64,000 nt of DNA from the NCBI GenBank assembly GCA_963781585.1, contig CAWAGQ010000004.1:1024001-1088000 (forward strand), given 5' to 3'. The notes under the pieces were generated by a model that saw nothing but the letters and a program-made list of their open reading frames with translations, did not search any database and was not told the origin of the DNA. Positions within the stretch are counted from its first letter, which is position 1; each line of letters begins with the position of its first letter. This DNA is from an uncultured Gemmatimonadaceae bacterium (lineage in GTDB: Bacteria; Gemmatimonadota; Gemmatimonadetes; Gemmatimonadales; Gemmatimonadaceae). Shown one piece after another: positions 39,607-55,391 of the stretch. A program made the translations under genes and the position numbers.

Positions 39607-39755
39607 TTCGTTCCTCCCTCGACGTGCTGGTGCAGCGGGCAATCGCCCTGACACGCGCCGCATCCGCCCGATTCGCAGCCGCGTTGCGGATGCAGCAGAC
39701 CGAAGACGACAAAGAGCACGGCGACGAGCGCGATGCCGGCAAGCGCGGTAATCAT
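39603..39755 (-). CDS. Small Cys-rich membrane protein, 50 aa (FeoB-associated Cys-rich-like)
   Basis: MITALAGIALVAVLFVVFGLLHPQRGCESGGCGACQGDCPLHQHVEGGTK; ATGA overlaps with both rnfA and apbE. Confidence 0.75.
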   Translation of the reverse strand: MITALAGIALVAVLFVVFGLLHPQRGCESGGCGACQGDCPLHQHVEGGTK

Positions 39756-40327
39756 GAGGTGCCCAGGCCGGCGAAGCCCATGAAGGCCATGGACAGGCAA
39801 CTGGCGATGAACAGGACGATGGCCATCGGGCGTGCGAGCCGCGGCACCTCGGTCAGCTCGGTGCGGACCCGTATGGACGCCATGAGCGTGAGCGCCAAGG
39901 TGAGGCCCATCCCGGCGCCGATGGCAAAGGCGAGACCCTGGATGAAGTTGTAGCCGCGATTGGTCTGGAAGATGGCGAGACCGAGGATGGCGCAGTTGGT
40001 GGTGATGAGGGGCAGGTAGATGCCAAGCTGTCGGAAGAGCACCGGATAGTGCTTCCTCACAGCCATCTCGACGATCTGCACTGCCGAGGCGATGACCACG
40101 ATGAACGCGATGATACGCAGAAACGGCGCCGGACCGAGCACATACTTGTTCAGGAACCAGGCGGACACGGCCGTCATCACGAGGACGAACGTGTTGGCCA
40201 GGCCGAGGCGCAGGGCGGTGCCGATCTGCTGGGTGACGCCGAAGAAGGAACAAAGCCCGAGAAACATCACCAGCGTGAAGTTGTTCACGAGCAGGGACGA
40301 GATCATGATCCACGCCAGATCACCCAT
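39752..40327 (-). CDS. rnfA: Rnf complex subunit A
   Basis: NNFTL..FLGLC.F.GV, LGIYLPLITTNCAILG, LSMAFMGFAG. Confidence 0.95.
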   Translation of the reverse strand: MGDLAWIMISSLLVNNFTLVMFLGLCSFFGVTQQIGTALRLGLANTFVLVMTAVSAWFLNKYVLGPAPFLRIIAFIVVIASAVQIVEMAVRKHYPVLFRQLGIYLPLITTNCAILGLAIFQTNRGYNFIQGLAFAIGAGMGLTLALTLMASIRVRTELTEVPRLARPMAIVLFIASCLSMAFMGFAGLGTS

Positions 40328-41027
40328 TTCCTGTCCTCCCGGATCGCACTGCACGTGCACGCCGCGTGCGCAGGTCGGCTGCGACGGCGACGCCCATGAG
40401 CAGCAGGCCAAGCGTGAAGAAGCCTCCTGGTGGGAGCATCATGAACACCCAGGGCTCGAAGCTGGCGGGCAGGACGCGGATCCCGAGCAGGGCGCCGCTG
40501 CCTAACAATTCCCGGATTGCGCCCATCATGGTCAGCGCGATCGTGAACCCCGCGCCCATGCCGACGGCGTCGAGGACGGCGCGTCCCACCGGCTGCCTGG
40601 CGGCGAACGCTTCCTGCCGTCCCAGCAGCAGGCAGTTCGCGACGATCAGGGCGATGAAGGGGCCAAGCGCCTTGTGAATGTCGGGCACCATCGCCTCCAG
40701 CAGCATGTCGGCCAGCGTCACGAAGGTGGCGATGATCAGGATGTACGAGGCGATGCGGACCTCGTTCGGAAACCGGCGGCGGAGCAGCGAGACGAAGAAT
40801 TCCGACCCCAGCAGGACGAACAGCGTGGCCATGCCCATGGCGAACGCGTTGGCGACGTTGTTGGTGACCGCCATGGTCGGGCACATGCCGAGCATCTGCA
40901 CCAGGACCGGGTTCTCCTTCCAGATGCCGCGCATCAGGTCCCCGATCAGCGGCGCCGGGGTCGTCGACGGTGGCGGCGGCACGGCCGGCGCGGCGACCGG
41001 CATTGTGGCGTCGATGGTCGTGCTCAT
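40320..41027 (-). CDS. rnfE: Rnf complex subunit E
   Basis: GIWKENP.LVQMLGMCPTMAVT, LIVANC..LGR.EAFA, RELLG.G, LPPGGF. Confidence 0.95.
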   Translation of the reverse strand: MSTTIDATMPVAAPAVPPPPSTTPAPLIGDLMRGIWKENPVLVQMLGMCPTMAVTNNVANAFAMGMATLFVLLGSEFFVSLLRRRFPNEVRIASYILIIATFVTLADMLLEAMVPDIHKALGPFIALIVANCLLLGRQEAFAARQPVGRAVLDAVGMGAGFTIALTMMGAIRELLGSGALLGIRVLPASFEPWVFMMLPPGGFFTLGLLLMGVAVAADLRTRRARAVRSGRTGNG

Positions 41028-41698
41028 GGGGTTGCTCCGGCCTGGTACGCCGTCAGCAGCGGGCGCCAGCGGGCAACCGCGTTGTTGATGATCCGGGTGA
41101 CGGCGCGCGACGAGATCGTGGCGCCGCTGATCGCCTGCACCTCAGCGGGGTCGTTGCCGCTGCGCTTCTTCACCGTCTTCAGGGGCGCGACCAGGCCGTG
41201 CCACTGGCCGACGAACGTGCTGTCCTTCTCGATCTTCTCCCCGAGACCCGGCGTCTCCTTCTGATCCAGGACCTTGAAGCCGAGAATGGTGCCGCTTCGC
41301 GGATCGAAGCCGAACATCAGGGAGATCACATCGGAGAATCCGGGTTCACCGGCGGTGATCGCCACGCCGAGCGAGTGCCCCTGCGCGTCGTAGCCGACGT
41401 AGGCCGCCTGGAGTTCGCTTCGCGCCACCGTGGGCTGCCTGGTCAACGCGCCGTTCTCCAGATAGAGCGTGTCCAGTCGCGCCGGGTGCTGGAGCACTTC
41501 GGCCACGGCCTGCTGGACGACCAGTCCCTTGTGCGCCTCGATCGGAGTGAGCGTGAGGCGATACACGATTACCACCAGCAGACCGGCCAGGGCGCCGGCC
41601 AGGCCTAACGTGCTCACCAGCCGCCAGGCCGGCGTCGCTTCGGCCGGGGGAAGTTCGGCCGGAACACCGGGGGTGTGGCAGTGCACCGGGTCGGTCAT
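41024..41698 (-). CDS. rnfG: Rnf complex subunit G (FMN-binding)
   Basis: One TM helix; ETPGLG; ISGATISS flavinylation motif; ATGA overlap with rnfD. Confidence 0.92.
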   Translation of the reverse strand: MTDPVHCHTPGVPAELPPAEATPAWRLVSTLGLAGALAGLLVVIVYRLTLTPIEAHKGLVVQQAVAEVLQHPARLDTLYLENGALTRQPTVARSELQAAYVGYDAQGHSLGVAITAGEPGFSDVISLMFGFDPRSGTILGFKVLDQKETPGLGEKIEKDSTFVGQWHGLVAPLKTVKKRSGNDPAEVQAISGATISSRAVTRIINNAVARWRPLLTAYQAGATP

Positions 41699-42693
41699 GC
41701 GATGACCCGCCCGGTGGTGCCGAACACGCGCGGCTGGGTGGCCTTGTTGATGAACGGCGTGAACGCGTTCATGAACAGGATGGCGTACATGACCCCTTCG
41801 GGGAGACCTCCCCAGACCCGGATCACCACCGTGACCACGCCCACGCCGGCGCCGAAGATCCAGCGCCCCGGGTTGGTCACGGGCGCGGTGACCATGTCGG
41901 TGGCCATGAAGATCGCGCCGAGCGCGAGTCCGCCCGAGAAGAGCATGAACAAGGGCGCCGGATAGGCCGGCGAGAAGGCGTGGAGGATGACCGCGAACGC
42001 GGCAATCGACGCGAAGATACTGACCGGGACACGCCAGTTGAGGTATCCGCGCAATGCCAGGTACGCGCCGCACAGCACGATCACGATCACCGAGGTCTCA
42101 CCTAACGAGCCGCCGGTGTTCCCGGTGAACAGGGCCAGCACCGAGGTGCCGTGTCCCTCGAACTTCCAGGCGCCAAGTGGCGTGGCGGCGGTGATGGCTT
42201 CCGTCACCCGCGGGTGGGTGAGGGGGAAGGCGAACAGATCACCCCGCAGCGCCCACCAGGATTGACCGGGAACCGGCCAGGTCGTGATGGCGACCGGAAA
42301 CGCCGCCTGCAGGAAGGCGCGTCCGAACAAGGCAGGATTGAAGATGTTCTGGCCCAGACCCCCGAACACGATCTTTCCGAAACCGATTCCCATGGCGCCA
42401 CCGAGAAACGCCATCCACAACGGCATCCCGGCGGGGAGGGTGAGTCCGAGCAGGATGCCGGTGATCGCGGCCGAGCCGTCGGAGAGCGTTCCCGACTTGC
42501 CAAAGACGCGCTCGGTCAGCATGGCGCCGAGCGTGGCCGCTCCCACCACCAGGAGCGCACTGACCCCGAAATACCACGCCGCAACCACGACGATGGGGAT
42601 CAGGCTGCCCACGACGTTCCACATGATCCGCGGCGTGGACTCGCGCGCGCGGAGGTGCGGCGCGGCGGTGACGACCAGCGAACCGCCGCTCAC
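41695..42693 (-). CDS. rnfD: Rnf complex subunit D
   Basis: APH, D.SA.ITG.LL..LP, GGLGQNIFNPA, TAATPL, GS.GETS, FMATD.VT.P, PEGV.YAIL; GTG start overlapping rnfC stop. Confidence 0.94.
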   Translation of the reverse strand: MSGGSLVVTAAPHLRARESTPRIMWNVVGSLIPIVVVAAWYFGVSALLVVGAATLGAMLTERVFGKSGTLSDGSAAITGILLGLTLPAGMPLWMAFLGGAMGIGFGKIVFGGLGQNIFNPALFGRAFLQAAFPVAITTWPVPGQSWWALRGDLFAFPLTHPRVTEAITAATPLGAWKFEGHGTSVLALFTGNTGGSLGETSVIVIVLCGAYLALRGYLNWRVPVSIFASIAAFAVILHAFSPAYPAPLFMLFSGGLALGAIFMATDMVTAPVTNPGRWIFGAGVGVVTVVIRVWGGLPEGVMYAILFMNAFTPFINKATQPRVFGTTGRVIA

Positions 42694-44021
42694 GCGGCCG
42701 CCGCCTTGCGCTTCTTCAGCGCGGTCCTGCTGAACGCGAACAGCTGGGCGAGCGGGATGTTCGAGGGGCACACATAGGAGCACGCGCCACAGAGCATGCA
42801 ATCGGCCAGGTGCAGCGCCTCCATGTCGTCATACCGGTTCAGCCGCGCGTAGTCGCCGAGCAGCGAGGGATTCAGGAACACCGGGCAGGCATCCAGACAG
42901 TTGCCGCAGTGGATGCAGGGGTAGATCTGTTCGCTGCGTGTCTCGTCGCCAGCCAGGGCCACGATGCCCGTGGTCCCCTTGGTGACCGGCGCGTCGAGGG
43001 AGCTCTGGGCCAGGCCCATCATCGGGCCGCCGATGATGACTTCGGCCGCGTCGTCGGTGAGCCCTCCACAGAACTCCAGCACGTCACGCAGCCTGGTCCC
43101 CACCGGGACGATCAGGTTTCCGGGCTTCCGCACGCCACGGCCGCTCACGGTGACGATGCGTTCGATGAGCGGCATCCCGGTCTCGAAGACCTCGGCGATG
43201 GCCGCCACCGACCCGACATTCTGGACCAGCACGCCCAGGCTCACCGGCAGCTTGCCCGACGGCACCTCGCGACCGGTGACGGCGCGAATCAGCATCTTCT
43301 CCGCCCCCTGCGGATACTTCACGGTCAGGGGGAGGATCGTCACGTCCAGGTCGGTGGGTGCCGACGCGCGCAGCGCCTCGATCGCGTCGGGCTTGTTGCG
43401 CTCCACACCGATCACCGTGCGCCGTACACCTAACGCGGCCATCATCACGCGGATGCCGAAGTGCACCCGGGCGGGGTACTCCGCCATGATGCGGTGATCG
43501 GATGTGAGATATGGCTCGCACTCGGCGCCGTTGACGATGATCGACTCGACCGCGTACTCCTTCGGCGGCGAGAGCTTCACGTGGGTGGGGAAGGCCGCAC
43601 CACCCAGCCCGACCACGCCCGCCTCCTGAACGGCAAGAACCGTCTGTTCGGTGGTCAAACCTTCCCACCTCGGCACCAGGCGTGGACGCGTGGTCTGTAC
43701 CGCATACCGATCGACGGCGATCCGCACCGCCATGGTATCGGTCCCGTCGATGTAGGGGGCCCACTCGATCGCGGTGACTCGTCCCGCGGCCGACGCATGG
43801 ATGGGCACCGACATCCAGCCATCGGACGTGCCGACCTTGTCGCCGCGTTCGACATGGTCGCCGGGCTTCACACAGGCGATGGCGGGCTTCCCGGCATGCT
43901 GCTGGAGCGGCAACACCAGCTCCGCCGGGAACGGCATCCGGCGAATCGGGAGCGTGTTGGTGAGTTCCTTGGATTCGGGAGGATGAACCCCGTGCTGGAA
44001 GCCGAACCGTGAGAGCAGCAT
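42690..44021 (-). CDS. rnfC: Rnf complex subunit C
   Basis: GVHP..K, QHAG.PA, GLGGAAFPTHVK, NGAECEPYLT.D, KYPQGAEK, GGPMMG, CIHCGNC..CP, CMLCGACSYVCPS. Confidence 0.95.
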   Translation of the reverse strand: MLLSRFGFQHGVHPPESKELTNTLPIRRMPFPAELVLPLQQHAGKPAIACVKPGDHVERGDKVGTSDGWMSVPIHASAAGRVTAIEWAPYIDGTDTMAVRIAVDRYAVQTTRPRLVPRWEGLTTEQTVLAVQEAGVVGLGGAAFPTHVKLSPPKEYAVESIIVNGAECEPYLTSDHRIMAEYPARVHFGIRVMMAALGVRRTVIGVERNKPDAIEALRASAPTDLDVTILPLTVKYPQGAEKMLIRAVTGREVPSGKLPVSLGVLVQNVGSVAAIAEVFETGMPLIERIVTVSGRGVRKPGNLIVPVGTRLRDVLEFCGGLTDDAAEVIIGGPMMGLAQSSLDAPVTKGTTGIVALAGDETRSEQIYPCIHCGNCLDACPVFLNPSLLGDYARLNRYDDMEALHLADCMLCGACSYVCPSNIPLAQLFAFSRTALKKRKAAAA

Positions 44022-44025
44022 GTGA

Positions 44026-47000
44026 TCAGCTGAAGGGCTTGGCCCGCTCGATCCACTTCGGGAGATCCTTCTCCTTCGGGTTGAGCGGCGTTCCGGGGTG
44101 AATGGCGGCGACGGGGCACTTCTCGGCGGCCTGCACCAGCTGCGCGAACGTGCCGGCCTTTGCGTCCTTCACATACGCCTGCTTGTTCGCGTTGTAGGCG
44201 AACATGCGTCCGTTGAGATTCGTGCATTCGTTGCAGGTCGTGCACCGCGCCGACTCGACGTAGGCCTCCATCGCCAGGTCGTCGTCCTCCTGGGGTTGCG
44301 CAGGCGGCGCCGCCGCGGCCGCGGCGACGGCACCGTCCGCGCGGTGTGCGGTTTCCGGACCGGCCTCGGAAGACGCGTGAGACGCCGTGACGCCCGCACC
44401 GTTCGACCCGGAGGCCGCGTCCGGGGCTAGCGCGCTCCCCGAAGGGATGGCACTCGGTGCGGGCGCTGATACGGCATCGGAAACCAGATCGTTCGCCACG
44501 CCGGTGGCGAAACGGGACAGCAACTCGGTTGCGGCATGCGGGCCACCCGCGCTCCGCAGCAGCCCCTGGGCGAGACGCCGAGCAATCAACGGCGGGTAGC
44601 TCGCACGCAGGTCGGCCAGCTTCTTTTCGTACTCGCTGCGCAGCTCCTGCACCTGCCGATCGAAGTCCGACTCGACCGCGGACAGTACGCGCTCGCGAAT
44701 GGCGGGCGCGACCTCCAGACCGGCGAGCTGGCGCAACTGCGACCAGAACAGGAGCCGTTCTTCCGCGAGTTGCACCATTTCGGCCGAGACCGCGAGCCGG
44801 CGGAGCCGCTTCTCTCCGGTGGTCGCCCAGATGAAGGGCGACTTCCCCGCTCTCTCGTCAGGCGCGAGGGCAACGTACTCGTGGAACGGCAGCATCTCGT
44901 CGTTCCAGGCGGCGTGCTTCACTTCCCGGAAGTGCTTCCGGAAGCGTCCCTCGGTGGCCGCCCAGTCGGCGATGGTGAGCGGAAGGTCCATGCTGCCTGG
45001 GGCGCCGTCGTCGTCGGCATAGTGCAGGGTGTACGACGGCCACAGATCGTCGACGGCCGGATTGCCGTCGAGCGTGAGGCAGTCGGCCAGCGCGCCACCT
45101 GCGTCGGGATCGTAGGTCAGGAAGGGGAATGCCCGACTCTCGAGCGCCAGACGGGCGGCGTGCTGACCCCAGTCGTCGGCCAGCCCGTGCTCCACCGGAC
45201 ACGGCGTGTAGATGTTGAACACCGCCGGCCGGCGCTGCTGCAGACCACGCAGGATGCCGCCCATGAGATGCGACGCCGAGGCCTGCGACGACTGGTGCAC
45301 GAACACGCCGCGGTGCGCGATGGCAATGAGGGCGAGTTCCTTCCGCACTTCGGTCTTGCCATGCTGCACCGCGCCATAAGCGGACATGTCGGCCACCTGA
45401 CCCGTGAAACCACTGGTGCACGCCTGTCCGCCGGTGTTCGAGTAGACCTGGGTGTCGAGGACGACCACCCGCAGCGGCTTTCCGGAGGCGAGCAGCCGCG
45501 AGAGGTTCTGGAAGCCGATATCGAGCATGGCGCCATCGCCACCCATGGTGACGATGGGCGGGCACATGGCGAATTCCTCATCGGTGAACTGCTGCCAACC
45601 GACGGCGACGAATTCCTTCTCATGCGTGGCCGCGTCGTAGGCGTCGTTGGCCAGCAGCTCGGCCCGTCGCACGCTCACGAACTGGTCGGCCATCTTGCGC
45701 ATCTGCCCTTCGAAGACGCCGATCGCCACCGACGGGGCGTCCTGGAAGAGGTGGTTCACCCACGGGAAGGGGTATGGATTGTACGGGTAGGTACTGCCCC
45801 ACACCGACGAGCACCCGGTGCTGTTGGCCATGCCCAGGCGCGCCCTTCCCTTCCCAGCCGGCCCCTCCAGGTAGCGCCACCGAAGATCCTTGAGCTCGTC
45901 GATCGCCCGAGCGAGCAGCGCGAGGCGCTTCCGACGATCCTCATCAACCGGAACGGTGACTTCCCCAGCGGGGGCCTGACCGGCCGCGCGCAGATCGGCG
46001 CTGGAGGCGAGCAACTCGCGGGCCTTGGCGTCGAGGGTCGCGATGAGCGAATCGAGCCGCGCCACGTACCGCTCGACGCGCGGACCCATCAGCGCGTGGA
46101 TCGTCGACGTGACCAGGTGGACGGTCGTCTTTTCCCCGCAGCCCATGCAGGCGCCGTCGCCGCCCACCATCGACCGGTAGCTGTTCTTCTTGAGCAGCAA
46201 CGACGGAAGCACGCCGACACCTTCGTCGATGCGCGAGACGTTCACGTACCGGTCGTCGGTGTCGGGAAGCTGCTTCCAGAATTCCCAGTTGCGGCGAAGT
46301 CGCGCGAGCTTGTCGTCGTCCTGCCGCACGGTTACGAGGGCCTGATCGGGGCAGACGGCGACACACAGGTTGCAGCCCTTGCAGGCCTCGGGGTTCACGG
46401 TGATGGAGAGGAGCCCGCCGCTCGCCTTTGCCTTGCTCTCGGGCAGATCGTAGAACGGTCGCGTGCGCGCAAAGCGCATCTCGGCTATGGTGGCGTGCAC
46501 CGGCTCGAACTCGGCATCGACAGCGACCCGACGCTCGGGCTCTGTGACGAGTTTTCCGGCAACGGTGTCGTAGGCGCGTCGCAGCGCGGTCGCGAAGTCC
46601 ACGGAGGGATCACCGGCCATGACGCGTCGCGACTCCTTGCTGACAGGCTTGACCAGCTGCCGCAGGCGATCCAGCGGCGCACGCTGGCGCTCGGCGACGT
46701 CGATTGCGGAGCCAAGCGTGTCTTCGACGCCGGTCACGAGCCCCGGGATGGCAGCGTCGGGACATTGGGTCCAGCACTGCGCGCAGCCCGTGCACTTTTC
46801 CGCAATGAAGTCGGGTATCTCCATCCGCACACCGCTCATGTCGCGCACGGCGCCGGTGGCGGCGGGGATGGCGCTGATGGCGGCGAACGGATCGGCGATC
46901 ACGTCCTGGGAGAGCTTGCAGACGGCGCAGACCTGCTCCCAGAACCGTCCCGGGTTGCCGATGCCCTGTTCCGCGTCAGGCACGTCGAGCACGTCAGGAA

Positions 47001-49164
47001 TAGCCGGGACCGCTCCGTTCTCGTGGGCGTGGTCCGGCAGATCGACCGCGTCGACACCCACCACCTCGTCGTAGCCGCGGCGGATGACGCGCAGGTTGTC
47101 TTCCACCACCTGCGCGCCACGATGTCCGAACTTCTTGTCGAGCTGCTGGTGGATGCCGTCGAAGAGCGCCGCTTCGCTGCCGCCCTCCCGCTCCAGCAGC
47201 GGCGAGACCCGGAAGAAGGCGCCGAGGAACGCCGCGCCCTGCATCCGGTAGCGCAGGTCGGCATCGGAGGCTTCGGCGGCGGCGATGCGAAAGGCGTCGA
47301 TGACATAGGTGCGAATTCCGCGGCGTCGGATTTCGGCACGCGCCCCGGGCGGCAGGGTCGCCCATGCCGCAACCGGCTCCAGCTCGCTCTGCAGCACGAA
47401 GACGCCGCCGTCGGCCAACCCCGCCAGAGGATCCGAGTGGCGGAAGACGTTCGGATCGGGGGCGAGCACGACGTCGACGTGTTTCAACTCGCCATTGAGG
47501 CGAATCGGCTCATGTGCGAGCGTGGCGTAGAAGGTGGTGGGTTGTCCCTTCTTCTCGGATCCGTATTTCGGGTTGGCCTTGATGTGCATCCCGAACAGCT
47601 CGAAGGCGGTCATCGACAGGTTCTTGCCCATCGTGATCGCGCCCCAGCCGCCCACCGAGTGAATGCGCACGGACGTCGAGTTCTTCGGCATCAGGTTGAA
47701 GTCACCGGCCGACTTGAGCGCGAGATCTTCGATGTCCGGGTACGCTTCGATCAGCTGCTCCTGCCAGATCTGGAGCTTGGGCAGGCGCGTGTCCCGGCGA
47801 ATGAAGTCGATACCGAGGTAGAACTGGCGGCGCCGCTCCGCGCGGGCCGCGGGCAGCATATTCTCGACCGCGGCGATCACGTCGCCAGGCTGCAGGTCGC
47901 GGCTGCCGAGGCCGAAGCACCCGGAGTAGCAGTCGGGGATGTCGTCCGGGGCGATCAGCTGGATGCCCGGATGCGGCACGCTCACGCCTCGAGCGCGGAA
48001 GTTCTCGTGGCCTTTCGACAGCGCGGCGCGGATCTCGCGCAGCAACGGGAGATCGACCGCCAGCGGCTGGTCGGTCCGTTCCAGCACCACCACGCCCTTC
48101 TTGCCGCGAAGCAGGCGTGAGATCAGGTCGGCGGGGAACGGCCGGAACATGGTGAGGTTGACCACGCCGACGCGGAGCTGTCGGGTTTCCCGCAGGAAGT
48201 CGGCGACCGCTTCGGCGTTGGCCACGAGCGAACCCTGTCCTACGATGAGATACTCCGCATCGTCGGTGCGGTATCCGGTGGCACGCGCATAACGACGCCC
48301 GGTCAGAGTGGCGAATTCGGCCATGGCGCGGTCAGTCAGATCCGCCAGGTGCTCGAAATAGAACGGGCGCTGGGCGGCGACCCCCTGGGCATAACTGTCC
48401 TGGTTCTGCACCACGCCGAGCATGGCCGGGTGGTCGAGATCGAACATCTCCGGAATGCGACGGCGTTTCGCGCCGAAGACGAGGCGCTGTGCGGGCGTCG
48501 GCGCGTCGATGAAATCGGCCGGGCTCCCGAGGAACTCACGCACCAAGTCGCGTTCGGGGAGCCGGATCGACTCGATGACGTGACTGGTCAGGAAGCCGTC
48601 CTGGGCGCAGATCCCCGGGTTGAGCGACAGTTCGGCGATGCGGTGCGCGATGAGATTGAGGTCGGCGCTCTCCTGGACGTCCTTGGCGAAGAGCTGGAAG
48701 AATCCGGAGTCGTCGACGGCGTGGTAGTCGTCGTGGCCGGCGTGGACGTTGAGCGCGTGCTTGGTGAGCGCCCGAGCAGCCACGTTGAGGACGTAGGTGA
48801 GTCGCTTTCCGACAGCCGGGTAGAGCGATTCGTGCATGTACACGATGCCCTGTCCGCTGGAGAAGTTCGTCGCCCGCATACCGGTCATGCTCATGCCGGC
48901 GGTAACGGCGGCGGCGGCGTGCTCGCCCTCGGGCTCGAAGAAGAGGAGGCGGCGGCCGAACACGTTGGTCTTGCCCTCGGCCACCGCGGCCGCCCACCCT
49001 TCGCCCATCTGTGTGGAGGGGGTGATGGGATATGCTCCGGCGGCTTCGCTGGCCGCGGTCTCCATCGCCACGACGGCGGCAGATCCGTCCATCGCCTCGA
49101 CAACGCCCGGATAGCGAGGCGGTGCCGCCGCTGGTTCGCTGGTCTTTCCCGGCCAGATCTTCAT
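44026..49164 (-). CDS. nifJ: Pyruvate:ferredoxin/flavodoxin oxidoreductase (NifJ-type), 1712 aa, with extra linker and C-terminal ferredoxin domain
   Basis: AYPITPST, VAARA, FRPFP, YGSEKKG, CTGCAQC..CP, CKGCNLC..CP, GACMGCGE, NSTGCSSVWG, GGDG, DTQVYSNTGGQ, TPC; C-terminal CTTCNEC..CP; start re-called to ATG 49164 (ATGA with rnfB). Confidence 0.88.
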   Translation of the reverse strand: MKIWPGKTSEPAAAPPRYPGVVEAMDGSAAVVAMETAASEAAGAYPITPSTQMGEGWAAAVAEGKTNVFGRRLLFFEPEGEHAAAAVTAGMSMTGMRATNFSSGQGIVYMHESLYPAVGKRLTYVLNVAARALTKHALNVHAGHDDYHAVDDSGFFQLFAKDVQESADLNLIAHRIAELSLNPGICAQDGFLTSHVIESIRLPERDLVREFLGSPADFIDAPTPAQRLVFGAKRRRIPEMFDLDHPAMLGVVQNQDSYAQGVAAQRPFYFEHLADLTDRAMAEFATLTGRRYARATGYRTDDAEYLIVGQGSLVANAEAVADFLRETRQLRVGVVNLTMFRPFPADLISRLLRGKKGVVVLERTDQPLAVDLPLLREIRAALSKGHENFRARGVSVPHPGIQLIAPDDIPDCYSGCFGLGSRDLQPGDVIAAVENMLPAARAERRRQFYLGIDFIRRDTRLPKLQIWQEQLIEAYPDIEDLALKSAGDFNLMPKNSTSVRIHSVGGWGAITMGKNLSMTAFELFGMHIKANPKYGSEKKGQPTTFYATLAHEPIRLNGELKHVDVVLAPDPNVFRHSDPLAGLADGGVFVLQSELEPVAAWATLPPGARAEIRRRGIRTYVIDAFRIAAAEASDADLRYRMQGAAFLGAFFRVSPLLEREGGSEAALFDGIHQQLDKKFGHRGAQVVEDNLRVIRRGYDEVVGVDAVDLPDHAHENGAVPAIPDVLDVPDAEQGIGNPGRFWEQVCAVCKLSQDVIADPFAAISAIPAATGAVRDMSGVRMEIPDFIAEKCTGCAQCWTQCPDAAIPGLVTGVEDTLGSAIDVAERQRAPLDRLRQLVKPVSKESRRVMAGDPSVDFATALRRAYDTVAGKLVTEPERRVAVDAEFEPVHATIAEMRFARTRPFYDLPESKAKASGGLLSITVNPEACKGCNLCVAVCPDQALVTVRQDDDKLARLRRNWEFWKQLPDTDDRYVNVSRIDEGVGVLPSLLLKKNSYRSMVGGDGACMGCGEKTTVHLVTSTIHALMGPRVERYVARLDSLIATLDAKARELLASSADLRAAGQAPAGEVTVPVDEDRRKRLALLARAIDELKDLRWRYLEGPAGKGRARLGMANSTGCSSVWGSTYPYNPYPFPWVNHLFQDAPSVAIGVFEGQMRKMADQFVSVRRAELLANDAYDAATHEKEFVAVGWQQFTDEEFAMCPPIVTMGGDGAMLDIGFQNLSRLLASGKPLRVVVLDTQVYSNTGGQACTSGFTGQVADMSAYGAVQHGKTEVRKELALIAIAHRGVFVHQSSQASASHLMGGILRGLQQRRPAVFNIYTPCPVEHGLADDWGQHAARLALESRAFPFLTYDPDAGGALADCLTLDGNPAVDDLWPSYTLHYADDDGAPGSMDLPLTIADWAATEGRFRKHFREVKHAAWNDEMLPFHEYVALAPDERAGKSPFIWATTGEKRLRRLAVSAEMVQLAEERLLFWSQLRQLAGLEVAPAIRERVLSAVESDFDRQVQELRSEYEKKLADLRASYPPLIARRLAQGLLRSAGGPHAATELLSRFATGVANDLVSDAVSAPAPSAIPSGSALAPDAASGSNGAGVTASHASSEAGPETAHRADGAVAAAAAAPPAQPQEDDDLAMEAYVESARCTTCNECTNLNGRMFAYNANKQAYVKDAKAGTFAQLVQAAEKCPVAAIHPGTPLNPKEKDLPKWIERAKPFS

Positions 49165-50000
49165 GCGTGCGCGCTCCCGACGAGACTGTCCTGACTGACG
49201 AACTGCGCCCGGTCGAGCCAGACGATCGCGCCGGTGGGACAGCGCTCGACGGCGCGTGGGTCCTCGAGTTCGACCTTCGAGTAGTCGATCACGGCGACGC
49301 CGGTGGCGACCGAAACCAGACCGACCGCGGCATCGACGACGCACTTGCCGCAGGCGGTACAGGCGACGCGGCAATCCTCGAGGATGTCGTCCCCGACGCG
49401 CAGGTTGCGGCACTGCACCAGCAGGTGGTGATCGACGGGCATGATGGTAAACAGGTCCTTGGGGCAGGCATCGACGCAGTCGCCACAAGCCGTGCACTTG
49501 TCGACGTCGACCACCGGCAGGCCCATGTCGTTCATCGCGATCGCATCGAAGTCGCACACCCGCGCGCAGTCGCCCAGGCCGAGACAGCCCCAGGCACAGC
49601 CCTTGGCGCCGCTGGCCACGGCGGCGGCCGCCGCGCAGGTGCGCACGCCGCGATACTCGGCGCGGGCAAAGGCGACGTCGGACCCACCCGCGCAGTGCAG
49701 TCGCGCGACCCGCTTCACGGCCGTGCCGGCATCGACGCCGAGAAACGCGGCGATGCCGGCGATGCCCTCGGCGTTGGACACGGTGCACTGGGCGGGCTGG
49801 ATGGTGCCCGCGACAGCCTGCTCGGCGAACGCCCGGCATCCCGGCAGGCCGCACGCGCCGCAGTTGGCGTTAGGCAGCATGGCGGCGACCGCGTCGATGC
49901 GCGGGTCCTCGTACACCCGGAGGCGCCGGTACGCGGCGGCAATCAGGCCGCCGAAGACCAGGCCCACGCCGCCGAGGATCGCGATCGCCAGGAGAATCAT
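49161..50000 (-). CDS. rnfB: Rnf complex subunit B (polyferredoxin)
   Basis: N-terminal TM; LP..NCGACG.PGC; GCLGLGDC..VC; CTACGDCVDACP; start re-called to ATG 50000. Confidence 0.93.
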   Translation of the reverse strand: MILLAIAILGGVGLVFGGLIAAAYRRLRVYEDPRIDAVAAMLPNANCGACGLPGCRAFAEQAVAGTIQPAQCTVSNAEGIAGIAAFLGVDAGTAVKRVARLHCAGGSDVAFARAEYRGVRTCAAAAAVASGAKGCAWGCLGLGDCARVCDFDAIAMNDMGLPVVDVDKCTACGDCVDACPKDLFTIMPVDHHLLVQCRNLRVGDDILEDCRVACTACGKCVVDAAVGLVSVATGVAVIDYSKVELEDPRAVERCPTGAIVWLDRAQFVSQDSLVGSAHA

Positions 50001-50013
50001 TGCCGGTCGCCCC

Positions 50014-51084
50014 TCACGAATCGCCGAGCCGGGACTGGGCCAGCAACCAGGACGCCAGCCGATCCACTGCATCATCGCTGCCCGCGTCGGTCACCGCTTC
50101 GGCCGGAAGCGGCGGCGCGAGCGGGGCGGCGGCCAGCGCCTCGAGTTGCCCCAGATCTTCCTGCATCTGCCAGACACTCGCTCCCCCGATCGTCCTTTCC
50201 GGTGCGACGCCGGTTCGCCAGACCGACAGACGCTGCCAGGCTTCGCGCCCACGAGCGGGATCGTGGAGGAAGCACGCCGCGCCGTCGGGCACGATCGCGG
50301 CAATGCCGGGCCCCGCGCTGGTGGCCAGGAGATCCAGTCCGGTCGCGTCTCCGGTCTGCAGCACCAGAGCGCCCGGGGTGACCAGGCGAACGAGGGGCGC
50401 CGGTGGGCACGGTTCCTCCACCACGAGCACCAGCTTCTCGCGCCCGTCCATGAAGGTCGCGAGCTCGCCCGCGCGAAGGTCGGCACCGCCGACCAGCACG
50501 ATCAGCGGCGGCGCATACCGTCGCTCCGTCCTGGTCCACGAGCGGAAGGCAAGTACGTCCAGCAGCCGATCGTGCTCGGCAGGAACGAACGCACCGCTGC
50601 GAATGAGTTCGATCGACAGCAGCGCGCCGAAGGCGCGACCCAGGCGGGACAGCGCGGCTTCCACGACTGCGCCGATCGAATCTCCCGGCGACACCCGGGC
50701 CAGGAACAGATCGTCGCCGTGCACCAACATCGAGCGCAGCGTGTCGACGGCGCGCTCCAATCGCTCACGCTGATCGTCGGACAACGGCGGCAGTGCGTCG
50801 AACAGATGCGTGAACACCGCCGGATCCACGCGCCCTGCCGCGAAGTGTCCCAGCTCGCGGGCCATGCGCTGGCGGCGGGCGTCGTCGCCCGACATCCGCG
50901 CCAGGCTGAGCGCCTCGGCCTGTTCCAGCGCCCCCGCCAGCGCGGCCCGGAATTCCGCGACCGGCCGGGCGAGCGCGTCGAACGCCAGCCGCAGGCGCTG
51001 TCTCGCGCTGCCCGATCCGTTGTCGGCGGATGCGCCAAGCGCGTCCAGCGCGGCCGAGACGAGTGACGTTGCGTCAGACCGCAT
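50014..51084 (-). CDS. Hypothetical protein; apparent degenerate paralog of the PFOR TPP-binding region
   Basis: 356 aa, overlaps korB stop; gapless 39-aa similarity to the PFOR segment before the GGDG motif; no GDG or Fe-S Cys motifs. Confidence 0.75.
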   Translation of the reverse strand: MRSDATSLVSAALDALGASADNGSGSARQRLRLAFDALARPVAEFRAALAGALEQAEALSLARMSGDDARRQRMARELGHFAAGRVDPAVFTHLFDALPPLSDDQRERLERAVDTLRSMLVHGDDLFLARVSPGDSIGAVVEAALSRLGRAFGALLSIELIRSGAFVPAEHDRLLDVLAFRSWTRTERRYAPPLIVLVGGADLRAGELATFMDGREKLVLVVEEPCPPAPLVRLVTPGALVLQTGDATGLDLLATSAGPGIAAIVPDGAACFLHDPARGREAWQRLSVWRTGVAPERTIGGASVWQMQEDLGQLEALAAAPLAPPLPAEAVTDAGSDDAVDRLASWLLAQSRLGDS

Positions 51085-52024
51085 AGCGATCGAGCTCCGC
51101 TTCCAGCAGAGAGAGACGTTCGTCGGCTGACCTGGGCGCCACCCGGCGGAGATCTTCGTACCGCTCCCGCGTAGGATCGCGATAGAAGAGCCCCAGGCGG
51201 ATGGAGTCGGTGGGTTCGGCGAGGCGCCGCGCCGCGTCGAGATCGCGCGGATCGTGCACCAGGCGTTGCTTGTAGATGCCTTCGATCTCCGGAGCGGCCA
51301 CGCCCGCGTCGTGCACCAGCAGCTCCACCAGCGCCGGCTTCTTCACGGCCTCGGCGTAGATGCCCGGCGTGTAGACGGGACAGCGCTGGAGGATGCGCAC
51401 GAACGACAGGCCACGATGCCGGTATGCGGCCCGCAACGTGGCGTAGAGATGGGCGGGAACGAACTCGGCCGTCTGCGCCACGAACGAGGCGTTGGTGACG
51501 CCTAACGCTACCGTCAACGGATTGAGCGACGGCAGGTACGAACCGCGGGGCTGGGTGTTGCTCGGCAGCCCGCGGGGCGTGGTCGGCGAGGTCTGGTTCT
51601 TGGTCAGGCCGTAGATGCCGTTGTCGAGCAGCATCACGGTCAGGTCCGGATTGTAGCGAAGGGCGTGAACCCAGTGCGCGGCGCCGATCGAACAGCAGTC
51701 CCCGTCGCCCATGACGACAAACACGTCGAGGTCGGGGCGGTGCAGCTTGATGCCGGTCGCCACCGGCAGCGCCCGACCGTGGATGCCGTGAAAACCGTAG
51801 GTCTTGAGATAGTGCGGGAAGCGGCTGGAGCAGCCGATGCCGGACACGAACACCGTCGTCTCGGGTCGCAGCTGTTCGGACGTGAGCAGCTTTTCCACGG
51901 CCGTGAGCACGGAATGATCGCCACACCCCGGGCACCATCGCGCCCGCGCGCCCTCGTAGTCGCTCAACTCGAAGTGGCGATCATCGTCGTCGGCGAAGAG
52001 CAGACCACACTGCAGCTCGTTCAT
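51074..52024 (-). CDS. korB: 2-oxoacid:ferredoxin oxidoreductase beta subunit
   Basis: WCPGCGD, SGIGCSSR, HGRALP.ATG.K, GDGD..SIG..H, N.IYGLTKNQ.SPT, QRCP; ATGA overlap. Confidence 0.92.
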   Translation of the reverse strand: MNELQCGLLFADDDDRHFELSDYEGARARWCPGCGDHSVLTAVEKLLTSEQLRPETTVFVSGIGCSSRFPHYLKTYGFHGIHGRALPVATGIKLHRPDLDVFVVMGDGDCCSIGAAHWVHALRYNPDLTVMLLDNGIYGLTKNQTSPTTPRGLPSNTQPRGSYLPSLNPLTVALGVTNASFVAQTAEFVPAHLYATLRAAYRHRGLSFVRILQRCPVYTPGIYAEAVKKPALVELLVHDAGVAAPEIEGIYKQRLVHDPRDLDAARRLAEPTDSIRLGLFYRDPTRERYEDLRRVAPRSADERLSLLEAELDRYAV

Positions 52025-53937
52025 CGTCCGGCCTCCCCACCGCGCGTCGTTCGGGCGCGAATCGTGTCCAGGATCGCTGCCGGACGGAGCGGCTCGCCGG
52101 GGACCCGCGTCCAGCAATCGACGTCCACCAGGGTGCTCGCCCGCAGCAGGGTACAGAGTTGTCCGCGCCGCCGGTTCTCCTCGGTGACATAGGGATCGCC
52201 CGACTGGTCGCTGTAGTTGAGTTCGACCGTCAGGACGTCGCGGAAGCGCGCGAAGATCTCCTTTAGCCCAGGCTCCAGTGGCGACAGGAACCGAAGGTGG
52301 ACCGCGGACACGGCGATGCCGCTGTCGCGCGCGCGGTCCACGGCTTCCTCGATCGCCCCTTTCGTGCTTCCCCACCCCACGATCAACAGGTCGCCTGCAT
52401 CGTCGCCATGGATTTCAGGCGGCCGCAGCATGGACTGCAGCACCGCCAGCTTCCGGCTTCGCATCGTGCTCGCACGCTGATGCACGCCGGCGCTGTACGC
52501 GACTTTGCTCCCTTCGTCGTGCGAGAGGCCCGTAAGCGTGTGCAGACCGCCGATCTGTCCCGGAATGAACCGGCGCGACAGCCCGGTGGCCGGGTCCCAG
52601 TCATACGGGCGCTTGCCATCCGGCACGCGGCCCAGGTCGAGCGGCGGCGCCTGCCAGGCAGTGTCGAGCACCGGACGCGGGAAGGGTTGCACGCCGGTGG
52701 CGAGGTTCGCGTCGGAGAGGACGACTACGACGGTGCGGAACGCCTCGGCGAGCCGCCGCGCGGTAACCATCACGTGGAAGCACTCTTCGATGGTCGCCGG
52801 GGCGATGACGATGCGCGGCGCGTCGCCAGGCTGGCCGAACAGGGCCGCGAGCAGATCCGACTGCTCCACCTTGGTAGGAAGGCCGGTGCTCGGACCGCCG
52901 CGCTGCACGTCGACCACCACGAGCGGCACTTCGGTCATCACCGCGAGACCGATGAATTCCGTCTTGAGCGCGAGGCCCGGACCCGACGTCACCGTAAAGG
53001 CCACCTTGCCGGCGTAGGACGCGCCGATGGCGACCCCGGCGGCGGCGATCTCGTCTTCGGCCTGGTGCACCACGCCGCCGAACTTCTCGAACACCTCGCC
53101 CAGGTAGTGCGAGACCGACGTCGCGGGCGTGATGGGGTACATGGCGCAGAGTTCGAGTCCGGCAGCGATCGCACCCATTCCGAGCGCCTCGTTACCGTTC
53201 ATCACCACCATCGCCTTGTCGCTGGGCACGGGTGGCACATCGATCCGGAAATCGAGGTGCGCCGCCGCCCAGTGAACCCCGAGGCGCACCAGGTCCACGT
53301 TGCGCCGGTACACGTCGTCGGACTTCTTGCGAAAGGCGTGCGCGATCTGCTCGTCGATTCGCTCCAGGTCCCGCCCGTAGATCCAGGCGAGAATACCGAG
53401 CGCGAACATGTTCTTGCCCTTGCGCGGATTATCGACCAGCGTCAGGCACTCTTCCTCCATCGGGACGGGGATGATGCGGTAATGGTGTCCCGAGAGTTCC
53501 TCCATCGCGGCTGACCAGGCGGCGCGGATGGACTCGTCGTCGTGCGTAGCCCAGCGGTCTTCCAGCAGAATCACCGCGTCCTCAGCCAGCGCGCCGAGAC
53601 GGTGCCTTGCCAGCAGCACCTGTTCATTGAAGGCGACAACGAGGTTGGTGTGGTCGCCCCAGTTGGTCACGGCGCCGGTGCCGAGGCGGATCCGGATGCC
53701 GCTGGCGCCTTCAGGAGCGCGGGGCGGGGGCTGGATTTCGGCGGGGATGATCTCGACAGTCCAGACGCCATTCCCCGTCTTCGCCGACACGGCGCCGAAG
53801 ATCTGGCCGCATTTCTGCGCGCCTTCGCCCGAGTCGGAGACAATTTCCACCGTGTGTTCGCGAACGCGCGTCGCCGGCGGCGCGTCTGGAGCCGCCATTG
53901 CATCGTTCGACAGCACGGTTTCGGAAAGCACAGGCAC
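52021..53937 (-). CDS. korA: 2-oxoacid:ferredoxin oxidoreductase alpha(-gamma) subunit
   Basis: DSGEGAQ, KNMFALG, MNGNEA, YPITPAT, QAEDEIAA, TSGPG, QRGGPSTGLPT, GWGST; start (GTG 53937) approximate. Confidence 0.92.
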   Translation of the reverse strand: MPVLSETVLSNDAMAAPDAPPATRVREHTVEIVSDSGEGAQKCGQIFGAVSAKTGNGVWTVEIIPAEIQPPPRAPEGASGIRIRLGTGAVTNWGDHTNLVVAFNEQVLLARHRLGALAEDAVILLEDRWATHDDESIRAAWSAAMEELSGHHYRIIPVPMEEECLTLVDNPRKGKNMFALGILAWIYGRDLERIDEQIAHAFRKKSDDVYRRNVDLVRLGVHWAAAHLDFRIDVPPVPSDKAMVVMNGNEALGMGAIAAGLELCAMYPITPATSVSHYLGEVFEKFGGVVHQAEDEIAAAGVAIGASYAGKVAFTVTSGPGLALKTEFIGLAVMTEVPLVVVDVQRGGPSTGLPTKVEQSDLLAALFGQPGDAPRIVIAPATIEECFHVMVTARRLAEAFRTVVVVLSDANLATGVQPFPRPVLDTAWQAPPLDLGRVPDGKRPYDWDPATGLSRRFIPGQIGGLHTLTGLSHDEGSKVAYSAGVHQRASTMRSRKLAVLQSMLRPPEIHGDDAGDLLIVGWGSTKGAIEEAVDRARDSGIAVSAVHLRFLSPLEPGLKEIFARFRDVLTVELNYSDQSGDPYVTEENRRRGQLCTLLRASTLVDVDCWTRVPGEPLRPAAILDTIRARTTRGGEAGR

Positions 53938-54209
53938 GCGTCGCCCCCCCTTCCGGGGTTGAGCCAATGGAGGGCAGGGGCACACGAGCGCCCAGTGGAA
54001 GCGGCCTTGCCACTGGCGTGATCTCTTGCCGGAACCGGGCGACCGTCCTCACCTGTCGGGTGAACGACGAGCTCCAGCACCGTTGGGCGAACCATAGGCC
54101 GCCACGGAGAAGGGCGTCTGTAGGGGACGCGCCGATGGAATGCGAGGGATCGTCGGTCAGCCGCGTGTCAGGCAATCGCTGACGCGCCGAGCGCGCCTAC
54201 CGACCCGCG

Positions 54210-55391
54210 TCAGACCGGCGCGAGGGACCGCTGGCGCACGCGCCCCGCCCGGCTCGCCGCTTCGCGCAGCCGCTCTGGTGAGGTGATGAATGAGACGCGG
54301 AAGAAGCCTTCACCGCCGGACCCGAACCCCGAGCCGGGAAGCACGATCACGCCTTCCTCCTCGAGCAGGCGCTCGGCGAACAGCGCGCTCGGCACGCCGT
54401 CGGGAACCGGGATCCAGAGGTACATCGTGGCCCGGGGCGCGTCGCAGGAGAAGCCCGCGGCGCGAAACGCAGCGACCGCCGCGTCCCGTCGCTCGCGGAA
54501 GACGCGCAGATTCCCGGGCACGAATTCCGCCCAACTCTCGAGCGCGGCGACCGCGGCGTACTGGATCCCCATGTACGCGCCGGTGTCCACGAACGACTTC
54601 ACACGGGCGAGGGCGCCACAGAGCTCCGGATTGCCGATCGCCCATCCGCAGCGCCAGCCGGTCATGTTGTAGGTCTTGCTGAGCGAGTGAAACTCGATCG
54701 CCACCTCGCGTGCTCCGTCGATCTCGAAGATGCTCGGCGGCAGATAGCCGTCGTAGGCCATCTCCGAGTAGGCGTTGTCGTACGCAAGGATGATGTCGCG
54801 CTCGCGACAGCGCCGGACGACGTCAGCGAGATACTCACGCGGTGCGACCGCGGCGGTCGGATTGTTGGGATAGTTCAGGTAGAGGACGCGCGTGCGGCGG
54901 AGGACCTCGTCGGGAACGGCATCGAGGTCGACGAGGAAGTTCGTGGCCGGGCGCAGGGGAAAGGAATACACCTCGGCGTCGGACAGGAGGGTGCCGCCGG
55001 CGTAGGCCATATAGCCCGGCTCGGGCACGACGGCCGCGTCGCCGCGCTGCAGATACGCGAACGCGAGGTGGGCGATTCCTTCCTTGGATCCGATCAGCGG
55101 CACCACTTCGCGGAGAGGATCGAAGGTGAGGCCGAAGCGGGTCTTCGTCCAGGAGACGATTGCTTCCCGGAATGGCACGTAGCCCAGCCCGAAGCCATAG
55201 CGGCCTAACGATGGCAGCTCCGCGGCGCGCGCGAGGGCCTCGATGGCGGCCGGCGGCGGCGCCAGGTCGGCGTCCCCGGCGCCCAGGTCGATGACATCCA
55301 CGCCCTTCGCAAGCAGTTCGCGTTTGCGCTGGGGAATGTGCGCCAGCGGATACGGCGGGAGCGCGGTGAAACGGCTGGTCTGAGGCGGCAT
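54210..55391 (-). CDS. Class I/II PLP aminotransferase (LL-diaminopimelate aminotransferase-like)
   Basis: LIGSKEGIAH, NYPNNPT, DNAYSE, FHSLSKTYNMTGWR.G, PG.GFG..GEG.FR. Confidence 0.88.
   Translation of the reverse strand: MPPQTSRFTALPPYPLAHIPQRKRELLAKGVDVIDLGAGDADLAPPPAAIEALARAAELPSLGRYGFGLGYVPFREAIVSWTKTRFGLTFDPLREVVPLIGSKEGIAHLAFAYLQRGDAAVVPEPGYMAYAGGTLLSDAEVYSFPLRPATNFLVDLDAVPDEVLRRTRVLYLNYPNNPTAAVAPREYLADVVRRCRERDIILAYDNAYSEMAYDGYLPPSIFEIDGAREVAIEFHSLSKTYNMTGWRCGWAIGNPELCGALARVKSFVDTGAYMGIQYAAVAALESWAEFVPGNLRVFRERRDAAVAAFRAAGFSCDAPRATMYLWIPVPDGVPSALFAERLLEEEGVIVLPGSGFGSGGEGFFRVSFITSPERLREAASRAGRVRQRSLAPV

Follow-up and report, generated by a model that had tools for sequence, protein, structure and literature searches.

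The locus and its genes

The stretch of DNA analysed here (the window) comprises 64,000 nucleotides from an uncultured Gemmatimonadaceae bacterium (assembly GCA_963781585.1, contig CAWAGQ010000004.1, positions 1,024,001 to 1,088,000), and its minus strand carries at 50014..51084 a hypothetical gene, here called HYPO, for a 356-aa conserved protein of no named family. HYPO lies between the genes for the two subunits of a 2-oxoglutarate oxidoreductase, one of the 2-oxoacid:ferredoxin oxidoreductases (OFORs), and a set of rnf genes into which the gene for a one-subunit pyruvate:ferredoxin oxidoreductase (PFOR) is inserted. We present evidence that HYPO is a cofactor-less paralogue of domain VI of this PFOR, the domain that binds thiamine diphosphate (ThDP), and we argue that it probably serves the gene cluster as a non-catalytic component.

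In the direction of transcription, the minus strand carries an aminotransferase gene (54210..55391), then korA, korB, HYPO, rnfB, PFOR, rnfC, rnfD, rnfG, rnfE, rnfA and apbE. KorA (OFOR alpha, 52021..53985, start codon not fixed) matches TIGR03710 at 525.8 bits, above the cut-off, and KorB (OFOR beta, 51074..52027), a protein of 317 aa from the Met at 52027 by translation and junction sequence, carries the Pfam domains TPP_enzyme_C and PFO_beta_C. According to the junction sequences, the ATG of HYPO is found 8 nt ahead of the korB TGA, an overlap of 11 nt, and rnfB starts 13 nt past the HYPO stop. RnfB (49161..50000; Pfam FeS and Fer4) measures 279 aa from the Met at 50000. The PFOR (44026..49164) is a one-subunit enzyme of 1712 aa with a C-terminal ferredoxin domain, recognised by Pfam POR_N, PFOR_II, POR, Fer4, TPP_enzyme_C and Fer4_13. 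It is followed by rnfC (42690..44021; RnfC_N, Complex1_51K and SLBB), rnfD (41695..42801; NQR2_RnfD_RnfE), rnfG (41024..42073; FMN_bind), rnfE and rnfA (39752..41027; two Rnf-Nqr matches) and the flavin transferase gene apbE (38611..39663; ApbE), all on the minus strand.

HYPO is a conserved protein family

HYPO matches no Pfam family at E ≤ 0.01 and no NCBIfam family at E ≤ 1. A word-indexed search nevertheless returned 94 homologues at E ≤ 0.001, all of about 330 aa; no Pfam domain is precomputed for any of them, and every named one is labelled “hypothetical”. An exhaustive search extended the family to 432 clusters at 50% identity, 266 of which score E ≤ 1e-30, and an alignment of 38 sequences contains 16 invariant columns. 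These homologues, clusters and invariant columns, together with a confident AlphaFold2 model (see below), show that the open reading frame (ORF) encodes a real, conserved protein. The family is more divergent than most of its neighbours, with a median identity to the window protein of 42% versus 61–72% for KorA, KorB, RnfB, PFOR and RnfC; RnfG stands at 45%. No longer, fused forms of HYPO were found, in a search that is weak evidence by the tool's own statement. Clusters of NACHT/STAND type proposed for HYPO by the ESM Atlas reached a best score of 0.84, below the level set for a lead, and were discarded.

A few genomes (G302, at locus L041; G337; G238; G323) show the HYPO match broken up into at least two pieces, either by a change of frame or by an internal stop, and in G302 the PFOR match is likewise in pieces. 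Such fragmented matches may reflect frameshifts, decay or sequencing errors.

Sequence homology to PFOR domain VI

The original prediction, made from the sequence of the window, described HYPO as a catalytically dead paralogue of the ThDP domain of the neighbouring PFOR on the basis of a gapless alignment of 39 residues. Translation bears out the positions and letters of this alignment, with HYPO residues 157–195 at 50500–50616 and PFOR residues 1167–1205 at 45550–45666, both on the minus strand, and a recount gives the same 9 identities out of 39 (EL, A, A, H, T, E and PP). Pairwise comparison with the C-terminal region of the PFOR had been suggested as a check, and it agrees: BLASTP aligns HYPO 132–199 with PFOR 1143–1209 (68 aa, 30.4 bits, E 3e-4 as a single comparison), and finds nothing better than E 3.7 between HYPO and KorB, while in profile–profile comparison the PFOR score lies above all shuffles. 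In the latter, the 38-sequence HYPO alignment was compared by hhalign with an alignment of 19 PFORs taken from related loci, which gave a score of 48.0 (P 7.5e-5) for HYPO 147–195 (50500..50646, minus strand) against PFOR 1157–1205 (45550..45696, minus strand). Column shuffling of the HYPO alignment, repeated 150 times, yielded a mean of 18.05 (standard deviation (sd) 2.95, maximum 28.0), so that 0 of 150 reached 48, and the reversed HYPO alignment scored 22.7. Seven real families or pieces from the same loci and of the same composition served as further controls: KorA 17.0, KorB 18.5, RnfB 13.9, RnfC 16.3, RnfG 15.0, PFOR 1–939 20.6 and PFOR 1421–1712 15.8. An independently built PFOR alignment from 44 loci scored 46.4 at the same site (PFOR 1155–1205), and a separate comparison with KorB gave 18.6, which is background level.

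Residues 147–195 are the sole segment of HYPO that is individually significant against the PFOR, and on their own they score 47.9. The N-terminal 130 residues alone reach 20.2 against shuffles of 14.5 ± 2.8 (maximum 23.4), at PFOR 1030–1093, and residues 196–330 alone score 21.5, inside the shuffle range, with their best match at PFOR 1349–1370. These two matches fall at collinear places and are as such consistent with homology, and individually they are no evidence for it. The same applies to a second resemblance that had been noted at the outset, between DQRERLERAVDTL and KRLALLARAIDEL: its place is confirmed as collinear (PFOR 1030–1093), its significance on its own is not, and hhalign prefers a register 2 residues away. 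With relaxed thresholds the hhalign alignment becomes collinear over 259 columns (HYPO 21–316 on PFOR 1020–1385, probability 79%, P 1.6e-5), which places the counterpart of HYPO in PFOR residues 940–1420 (44905..46347, minus strand), that is, in domain VI. In this alignment the PFOR strand–GDG loop–helix–strand unit (PPIVTMGGDGAMLDIG...LRVVVLD) lies over HYPO PPLIVLVGGADL...KLVLVVE, and further on the PFOR consensus GtlVlQT lies over HYPO GvfVhQsS and HDPxxG over YDPDAG.

The same relationship emerges from whole genomes. In a six-frame search of 401 sampled genomes of the window's phylum, the HYPO profile also matches the PFOR ORF in five, with per-genome E values from 4.6e-5 to 7.6e-4, and by coordinates all five secondary matches (profile positions 126–181) fall in PFOR domain VI. 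Taken together, the sequence comparisons point to a similarity between HYPO and PFOR that is real but weak, and that becomes visible only with profiles on both sides.

A phmmer search of PFOR 940–1420 against the PDB aligns residues 264–416 of this piece with Moorella PFOR 960–1107, and leaves unaligned about 85 residues (4 in Moorella) as well as 50 residues just ahead of GGDG, including the 1157–1205 counterpart of the significant HYPO segment. The helical N-terminal half of HYPO and its significant segment coincide with these two lineage-specific PFOR stretches. Since HYPO maps onto them, and KorB scores only at background in hhalign, the sequence data fit a duplication within this PFOR lineage rather than descent from KorB. 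For the C-terminal helix of HYPO no counterpart could be detected in the PFOR (score 12.0, shuffles 11.6 ± 1.2), and an equivalence with the “ADWAATE” helix of the PFOR, which a global alignment had suggested, was dropped.

Predicted fold

AlphaFold2 models HYPO with a pLDDT of 87.5 and a pTM of 0.80 from the 38-sequence alignment, and its alpha/beta half (residues 125–325, 49 sequences) with a pLDDT of 93.8 and a pTM of 0.88. The comparison with PFOR structures that the original prediction had proposed turned out as anticipated, in that PFOR domain VI ranks first for the whole model and for the half. All top 10 PDB rows returned by Foldseek for the whole model are PFOR chains (best E 3e-3, probability 0.97), followed by transketolase, DXS and OFOR beta subunits. 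Superposition of the Foldseek list with VIA-align gave Z 9.0 for the PFORs of Moorella and D. africanus, with 203 and 212 residues aligned at root-mean-square deviations (rmsd) of 5.6 and 7.9 Å, respectively; Z 8.0 for the oxalate oxidoreductase beta subunit, with 175 residues aligned over chain positions 9–305 of 310; Z 7.2 for PorB; and Z 6.1 for OorB.

A VIA-align search of 48,161 PDB representatives, independent of Foldseek, also placed Moorella PFOR (residues 784–1170) first, with Z 8.5 and 209 residues aligned. No other row reaches Z 8; PorB is at 7.3, and the other high rows are helical bundles at Z 7.3–7.4 that cover only HYPO residues 37–181. For the alpha/beta half, the wide search returned PFOR 828–1170 first (Z 7.9, 172 of 201 residues aligned), the next row scoring 5.3, and, judging by their titles, 46 of the 50 rows displayed belong to ThDP-dependent enzymes. 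A second search with the half gave seven top rows of PFOR domain VI (Z 6.9–8.2), and all 50 rows were ThDP enzymes. The Z values are moderate by the calibration of the tool; the weight of this evidence lies in the same domain coming first each time, in the coverage of the whole protein and in the agreement with the sequence alignment.

Loss of the cofactor sites

ThDP-binding domains bind Mg and the ThDP diphosphate through a GDG-X(24-27)-N(N) motif. In HYPO, GGADL (residues 199–203; 50476..50490, minus strand), aligned with GGDGAMLD of the PFOR, is the degenerate remnant of this loop. As had been observed originally, GGADL stands where the PFOR has GGDG, and the translation contains no cysteine motifs, only C226 and C271. 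We counted ligand conservation over 236 members of the HYPO family. The column aligned with the GDG aspartate (position 199) holds Asp in 114 of the 236, and the alignment with the PFOR leaves two gaps in HYPO. One removes a 39-residue segment with the GCSS cluster-cysteine motif and active-site loops, the other a loop of about 25 residues past the YSNTGGQ motif that carries the Mg-binding Asn. No member has an Asn at the place of the former Asn loop. No set or pair of cysteines is conserved either, C226 being the sole column with Cys in at least 30% of sequences (107 of 236). Neither the GDG...N motif nor the four cysteines of the proximal [4Fe-4S] cluster are thus present in HYPO. The canonical ThDP/Mg and [4Fe-4S] sites are absent, and with the GDG Asp not conserved and the Asn loop and cluster cysteines lost, it is likely that HYPO cannot act as a canonical ThDP/Fe–S enzyme.

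Of PFOR domain VI, HYPO retains the alpha/beta core together with the preceding helical elements. Columns that are retained across the 236 sequences include G200 (228), D202 (211), D213 (229), A229 (231), H274 (230) and P276 (234). Behind a variable Ala/Pro-rich linker follows a conserved C-terminal helix (residues 339–350; 50035..50070, minus strand), seen in the alignment and in the model, in which W346 and L347 are conserved at 95% or more. The description of HYPO as a catalytically dead paralogue of the PFOR ThDP domain is thereby supported from four sides, namely a profile similarity specific to PFOR, the collinear alignment, the fold searches and the loss of the ligands.

Gene order and distribution

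HYPO is a fixed gene of a korA-korB-X-rnfB-PFOR-rnfCDGEA-apbE cluster, in which it occupies the position X. Co-occurrence with rnfB–PFOR clusters had been predicted and is seen both in the order of genes at individual loci and in the comparison of genomes. HYPO was found in 76 of the 401 genomes (42 of 148 genera) by six-frame search, and 85 of the 401 match the C-terminal half of the PFOR at E ≤ 1e-20. A close long PFOR is also present in 75 of the 76 HYPO genomes; the remaining one (G109) carries a PFOR N-terminus where the HYPO contig (L053) ends. A PFOR match without HYPO occurs in ten genomes. Seven of these match at only 33–42% identity and represent other PFOR types, in G295 and G385 the PFOR match lies at the contig start, and the tenth is the complete genome G136 (see below).

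The order KorA–KorB–HYPO–RnfB–PFOR is preserved in 20 of 20 loci from 7 families, 19 of which continue with RnfC and RnfG. Further loci were drawn from species-representative genomes as the best 80 of 173 confirmed relatives, and by record title these 80 comprise 66 Gemmatimonadota, 6 Planctomycetota, 5 Rokubacteria, 1 “Deltaproteobacteria” bin and 2 unclassified entries. Among the 80, KorB is directly upstream of HYPO in 71 of 71 loci with sufficient contig, RnfB is directly downstream in 70 of 71, and a PFOR of at least 50% identity follows in 61 of 64. The three loci that miss such a PFOR consist of two with divergent PFORs (35% and 49% identity) and one with an assembly gap. In a quick tree the HYPO sequences of Rokubacteria and Planctomycetota are nested among those of Gemmatimonadota, which fits transfer of the whole cluster, or mis-binning.

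At L096 (4587–6778), the sole exception to the HYPO–rnfB order, HYPO is followed instead by an ORF without a Pfam match and an AI-2E family transporter, and korAB–HYPO is intact; the locus nearest to it in the quick tree (L097) shows the normal arrangement. At L035 (3439–6311, genome G059), the korAB of the cluster is directly preceded by a second, divergent korA–korB pair (35% and 42% identity).

Relation to known systems

The closest structural match to HYPO is domain VI of one-subunit PFORs (Moorella thermoacetica, 6cin; Desulfovibrio africanus, 1b0p), at Z 7.9–9.0, and domain VI of the PFOR in its own cluster is the sole significant profile–profile match, collinear through the strand–GDG loop–helix–strand unit. 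HYPO differs from this domain in having no Cys ligands, no conserved GDG Asp and no Asn loop, in the deletion of two loops, in being free-standing (about 330–356 aa) rather than fused, and in being invisible to Pfam and NCBIfam. It shares with OFOR beta subunits (KorB, PorB, OorB and the oxalate oxidoreductase beta subunit) a free-standing chain of around 300 aa with the domain VI fold; there is, however, no sequence signal to KorB (hhalign 18.5–18.6), which unlike HYPO keeps GDGD and the Cys motifs. The fold of the ThDP-binding domain, or OFOR domain VI (PF02775), is found in HYPO at moderate Z, as is remote profile–profile homology to a bona fide OFOR domain VI. Because it has neither a curated Pfam or NCBIfam profile match nor the GDG...N motif nor the Cys ligands, we class HYPO as a degenerate relative of OFOR domain VI and the beta subunits, not as a member. 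It is not an Rnf subunit in disguise either: hhalign scores against RnfB (13.9), RnfC (16.3) and RnfG (15.0) are background, and no Rnf Pfam family matches.

Prozymes, such as the trypanosomatid AdoMetDC prozyme, are dead paralogues that partner active relatives. HYPO follows a similar logic as a paralogue without catalytic residues that is kept beside, and presumably acts with, an active enzyme; it differs in that its parent is one domain of a fused multi-domain enzyme, and the partnership is putative. We know of no earlier description of a ThDP-fold pseudo-enzyme attached to 2-oxoacid:ferredoxin oxidoreductases. [quoted passage not shown] Compared by description only, the two differ, since epsilon corresponds to none of the seven PFOR domains in that account (PMC13768988) and HYPO corresponds to domain VI. 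Searches of the full-text literature and of this 2026 PFOR review returned no description of HYPO or of Rnf-embedded PFORs in the text covered; in that of the review, “Gemmatimon” occurs 0 times and “Rnf” once, as a generic ferredoxin sink, with one more occurrence in the references (PMC13768988). The accessible part of a Ferrigenium preprint contains nothing on HYPO.

The present analysis assigns an origin and a fold to a widespread hypothetical family (432 clusters at 50% identity) that has no Pfam or NCBIfam model. It also singles out the conserved korAB-X-rnfB-PFOR-rnfCDGEA-apbE cluster of Gemmatimonadota, which some Planctomycetota and Rokubacteria bins share, as a candidate 2-oxoacid/Rnf machine whose parts would be physically coupled. 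This bears on how mostly aerobic bacteria make or use low-potential ferredoxin, and a dedicated non-catalytic subunit would offer a concrete handle for its study.

Proposed role and alternative explanations

Descent of HYPO from PFOR domain VI is, in our judgement, very probable. On balance we also hold to the reading as a whole, in which a cofactor-less copy of that domain serves as a non-catalytic part of the kor–rnf–PFOR cluster. More tentatively, we propose that HYPO may be a stable structural subunit; this is the role we favour because the part best shared with the PFOR is a lineage-specific surface segment and because a tethered helix is conserved. In OFORs, domain VI is the domain of the ThDP diphosphate and of the proximal [4Fe-4S] cluster; it touches domain I and the other protomer and is a neighbour of the ferredoxin site. 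According to the accessible text of PMC5020499, the dimer interface is formed in all OFORs by domains I, II and VI, and in two-subunit OFORs the ferredoxin pocket is found between domains III and VI. The same text describes a C-terminal helix of the Sulfolobus (StOFOR) beta subunit that reaches over the other subunit (PMC5020499), and by analogy the C-terminal helix of HYPO could possibly be a clasping arm. In this proposal HYPO would retain the ability of domain VI to bind proteins but not its chemistry; the surfaces retained from this domain and the tethered helix would bind KorAB, PFOR or RnfB, and such binding would help to couple the oxidation or synthesis of 2-oxoacids to the Rnf ion pump. 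The original prediction likewise envisaged a pseudo-enzyme subunit that would pair with PFOR/Kor or scaffold them on Rnf, a role that is putative. A bolder and unlikely version has HYPO, as a cofactor-less domain VI module, dock KorAB, and perhaps also the giant PFOR with its own ferredoxin domain, onto RnfB within a membrane-bound supercomplex; if true, 2-oxoacid oxidation or reductive carboxylation in aerobes would be wired directly to the Rnf pump without free ferredoxin.

Several observations weigh against this interpretation. By sequence, only about 50–68 residues are significant, the remaining alignment resting on collinearity. In the window's own genome the family hidden Markov model (HMM; 236 sequences) ranks the PFOR ORF only 6th of 39,408 ORFs, at the same site and with E 0.69. 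A search of PDB sequences with the family profile yields designed repeat proteins and ATP synthase subunit c, all at E ≥ 0.18, but no OFOR, and HYPO has no Pfam TPP_enzyme_C match. On the structural side, no Foldseek E value reaches 0.001, Z values of 8–9 are middling by the tool's calibration, and rmsd values of 5.6–7.9 Å are high. The best-conserved residues of HYPO (G200, D202, D213–G214, P228–A229 and H274–P276, with L231 and Q243 among the other best-kept columns nearby) sit at the former cofactor loops, so that some ligand may still be bound. In G136, a complete genome, the 20 kb region around a close long PFOR contains neither Kor nor Rnf nor HYPO, so this PFOR type is not strictly dependent on HYPO. 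In a mirror-tree analysis of 44 loci, lastly, PFOR was the protein that correlated least with HYPO (raw r 0.35, partial −0.12); the partial r values for KorA (0.45), RnfG (0.39), RnfC (0.31), RnfB (0.28) and KorB (0.25) were obtained from non-independent pairs in which the divergent PFOR of L054 weighs heavily, and for this reason we draw no partner from them.

The modest Z values, the rmsd of at least 5.6 Å, the E of 0.69 for the PFOR of the same genome and the helical bundles that score Z 7.3–7.4 on residues 37–181 speak for an alternative in which HYPO is unrelated to PFOR, a helical plus Rossmann-like protein that resembles it by chance or convergence. We regard this as very improbable, given a profile–profile score about 10 sd over the shuffles and far above the seven control families and pieces, a match at the structurally equivalent place (the strand ahead of the GDG loop) with collinear weak matches on its flanks, and two independent fold searches, with the whole model and with the half, that rank PFOR domain VI first in lists filled by ThDP enzymes. 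The clustering of the best-kept columns at the former cofactor loops indicates that a remodelled pocket or interface is under selection. A protein of the same origin might not be dead: in its remodelled pocket a small ligand (non-canonically bound ThDP, a nucleotide, coenzyme A or a 2-oxoacid) could still be held, and the protein could serve KorAB, PFOR or Rnf as a sensor or regulator. The Asp at the GDG position in nearly half of the family could also be adduced for this reading. The deletion of the Asn loop and of the loops that wrap ThDP in PFOR, and the lack of a TPP_enzyme_C signal, render this unlikely.

A further possibility of the same origin is that HYPO binds only transiently, as an assembly or maturation factor or as a protective cap; seated on KorAB or PFOR at the domain I surface or at the cluster face, it would act during cofactor insertion or under oxygen and outside the working complex. 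Its faster evolution compared with its neighbours would suit such a factor, and so would its carriers, which are mostly Gemmatimonadota, a largely aerobic phylum. Accessory OFOR subunits of unknown role, such as epsilon, do exist (PMC13768988, available text). The overlapping or nearly abutting genes and the strict position of HYPO fit a stoichiometric subunit at least equally well, however, and HYPO shows none of the features expected of chaperones or redox proteins, such as a conserved Cys pair; we therefore think a transient factor rather doubtful, and retain the non-catalytic subunit as the preferred reading.

The long PFOR and further observations

The PFOR of the cluster, encoded between rnfB and rnfC, is unusually long (1712 aa) beside solved PFORs (about 1170–1230 aa). 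In domain VI, about 85 residues are inserted between the motifs GACxGCGE and GCSS, and the C-terminus is extended by about 290 residues, the last part of which is a single-cluster ferredoxin domain (Fer4_13). Against TIGR02176 the protein scores 403 bits, below the cut-off of 911. The PFOR that stands alone in G136 (L051, G136:C1:3924000-3943900) is 68% identical over residues 7–1528, with a TGA inside the match, and may be a decaying or solitary copy. In the single-contig genome G389, the PFOR match at L039 (G389:C1:1318900-1338800) ends at about residue 671, with no rnfC in the locus, and the C-terminal half is found about 0.8 Mb away (G389:C1:2132869-2135100) in an open frame of 995 aa; this is either a split PFOR or a misassembly.

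The G+C content around the HYPO locus is 66–73%. Two antisense ORFs on the plus strand, 49441–51066 and 50000–50773, overlie HYPO and have no Pfam match. The former, a frame of 541 aa with a third-position G+C content (GC3) of 0.83 opposite HYPO and rnfB, could mislead gene callers; both are taken to be high-GC artefacts.

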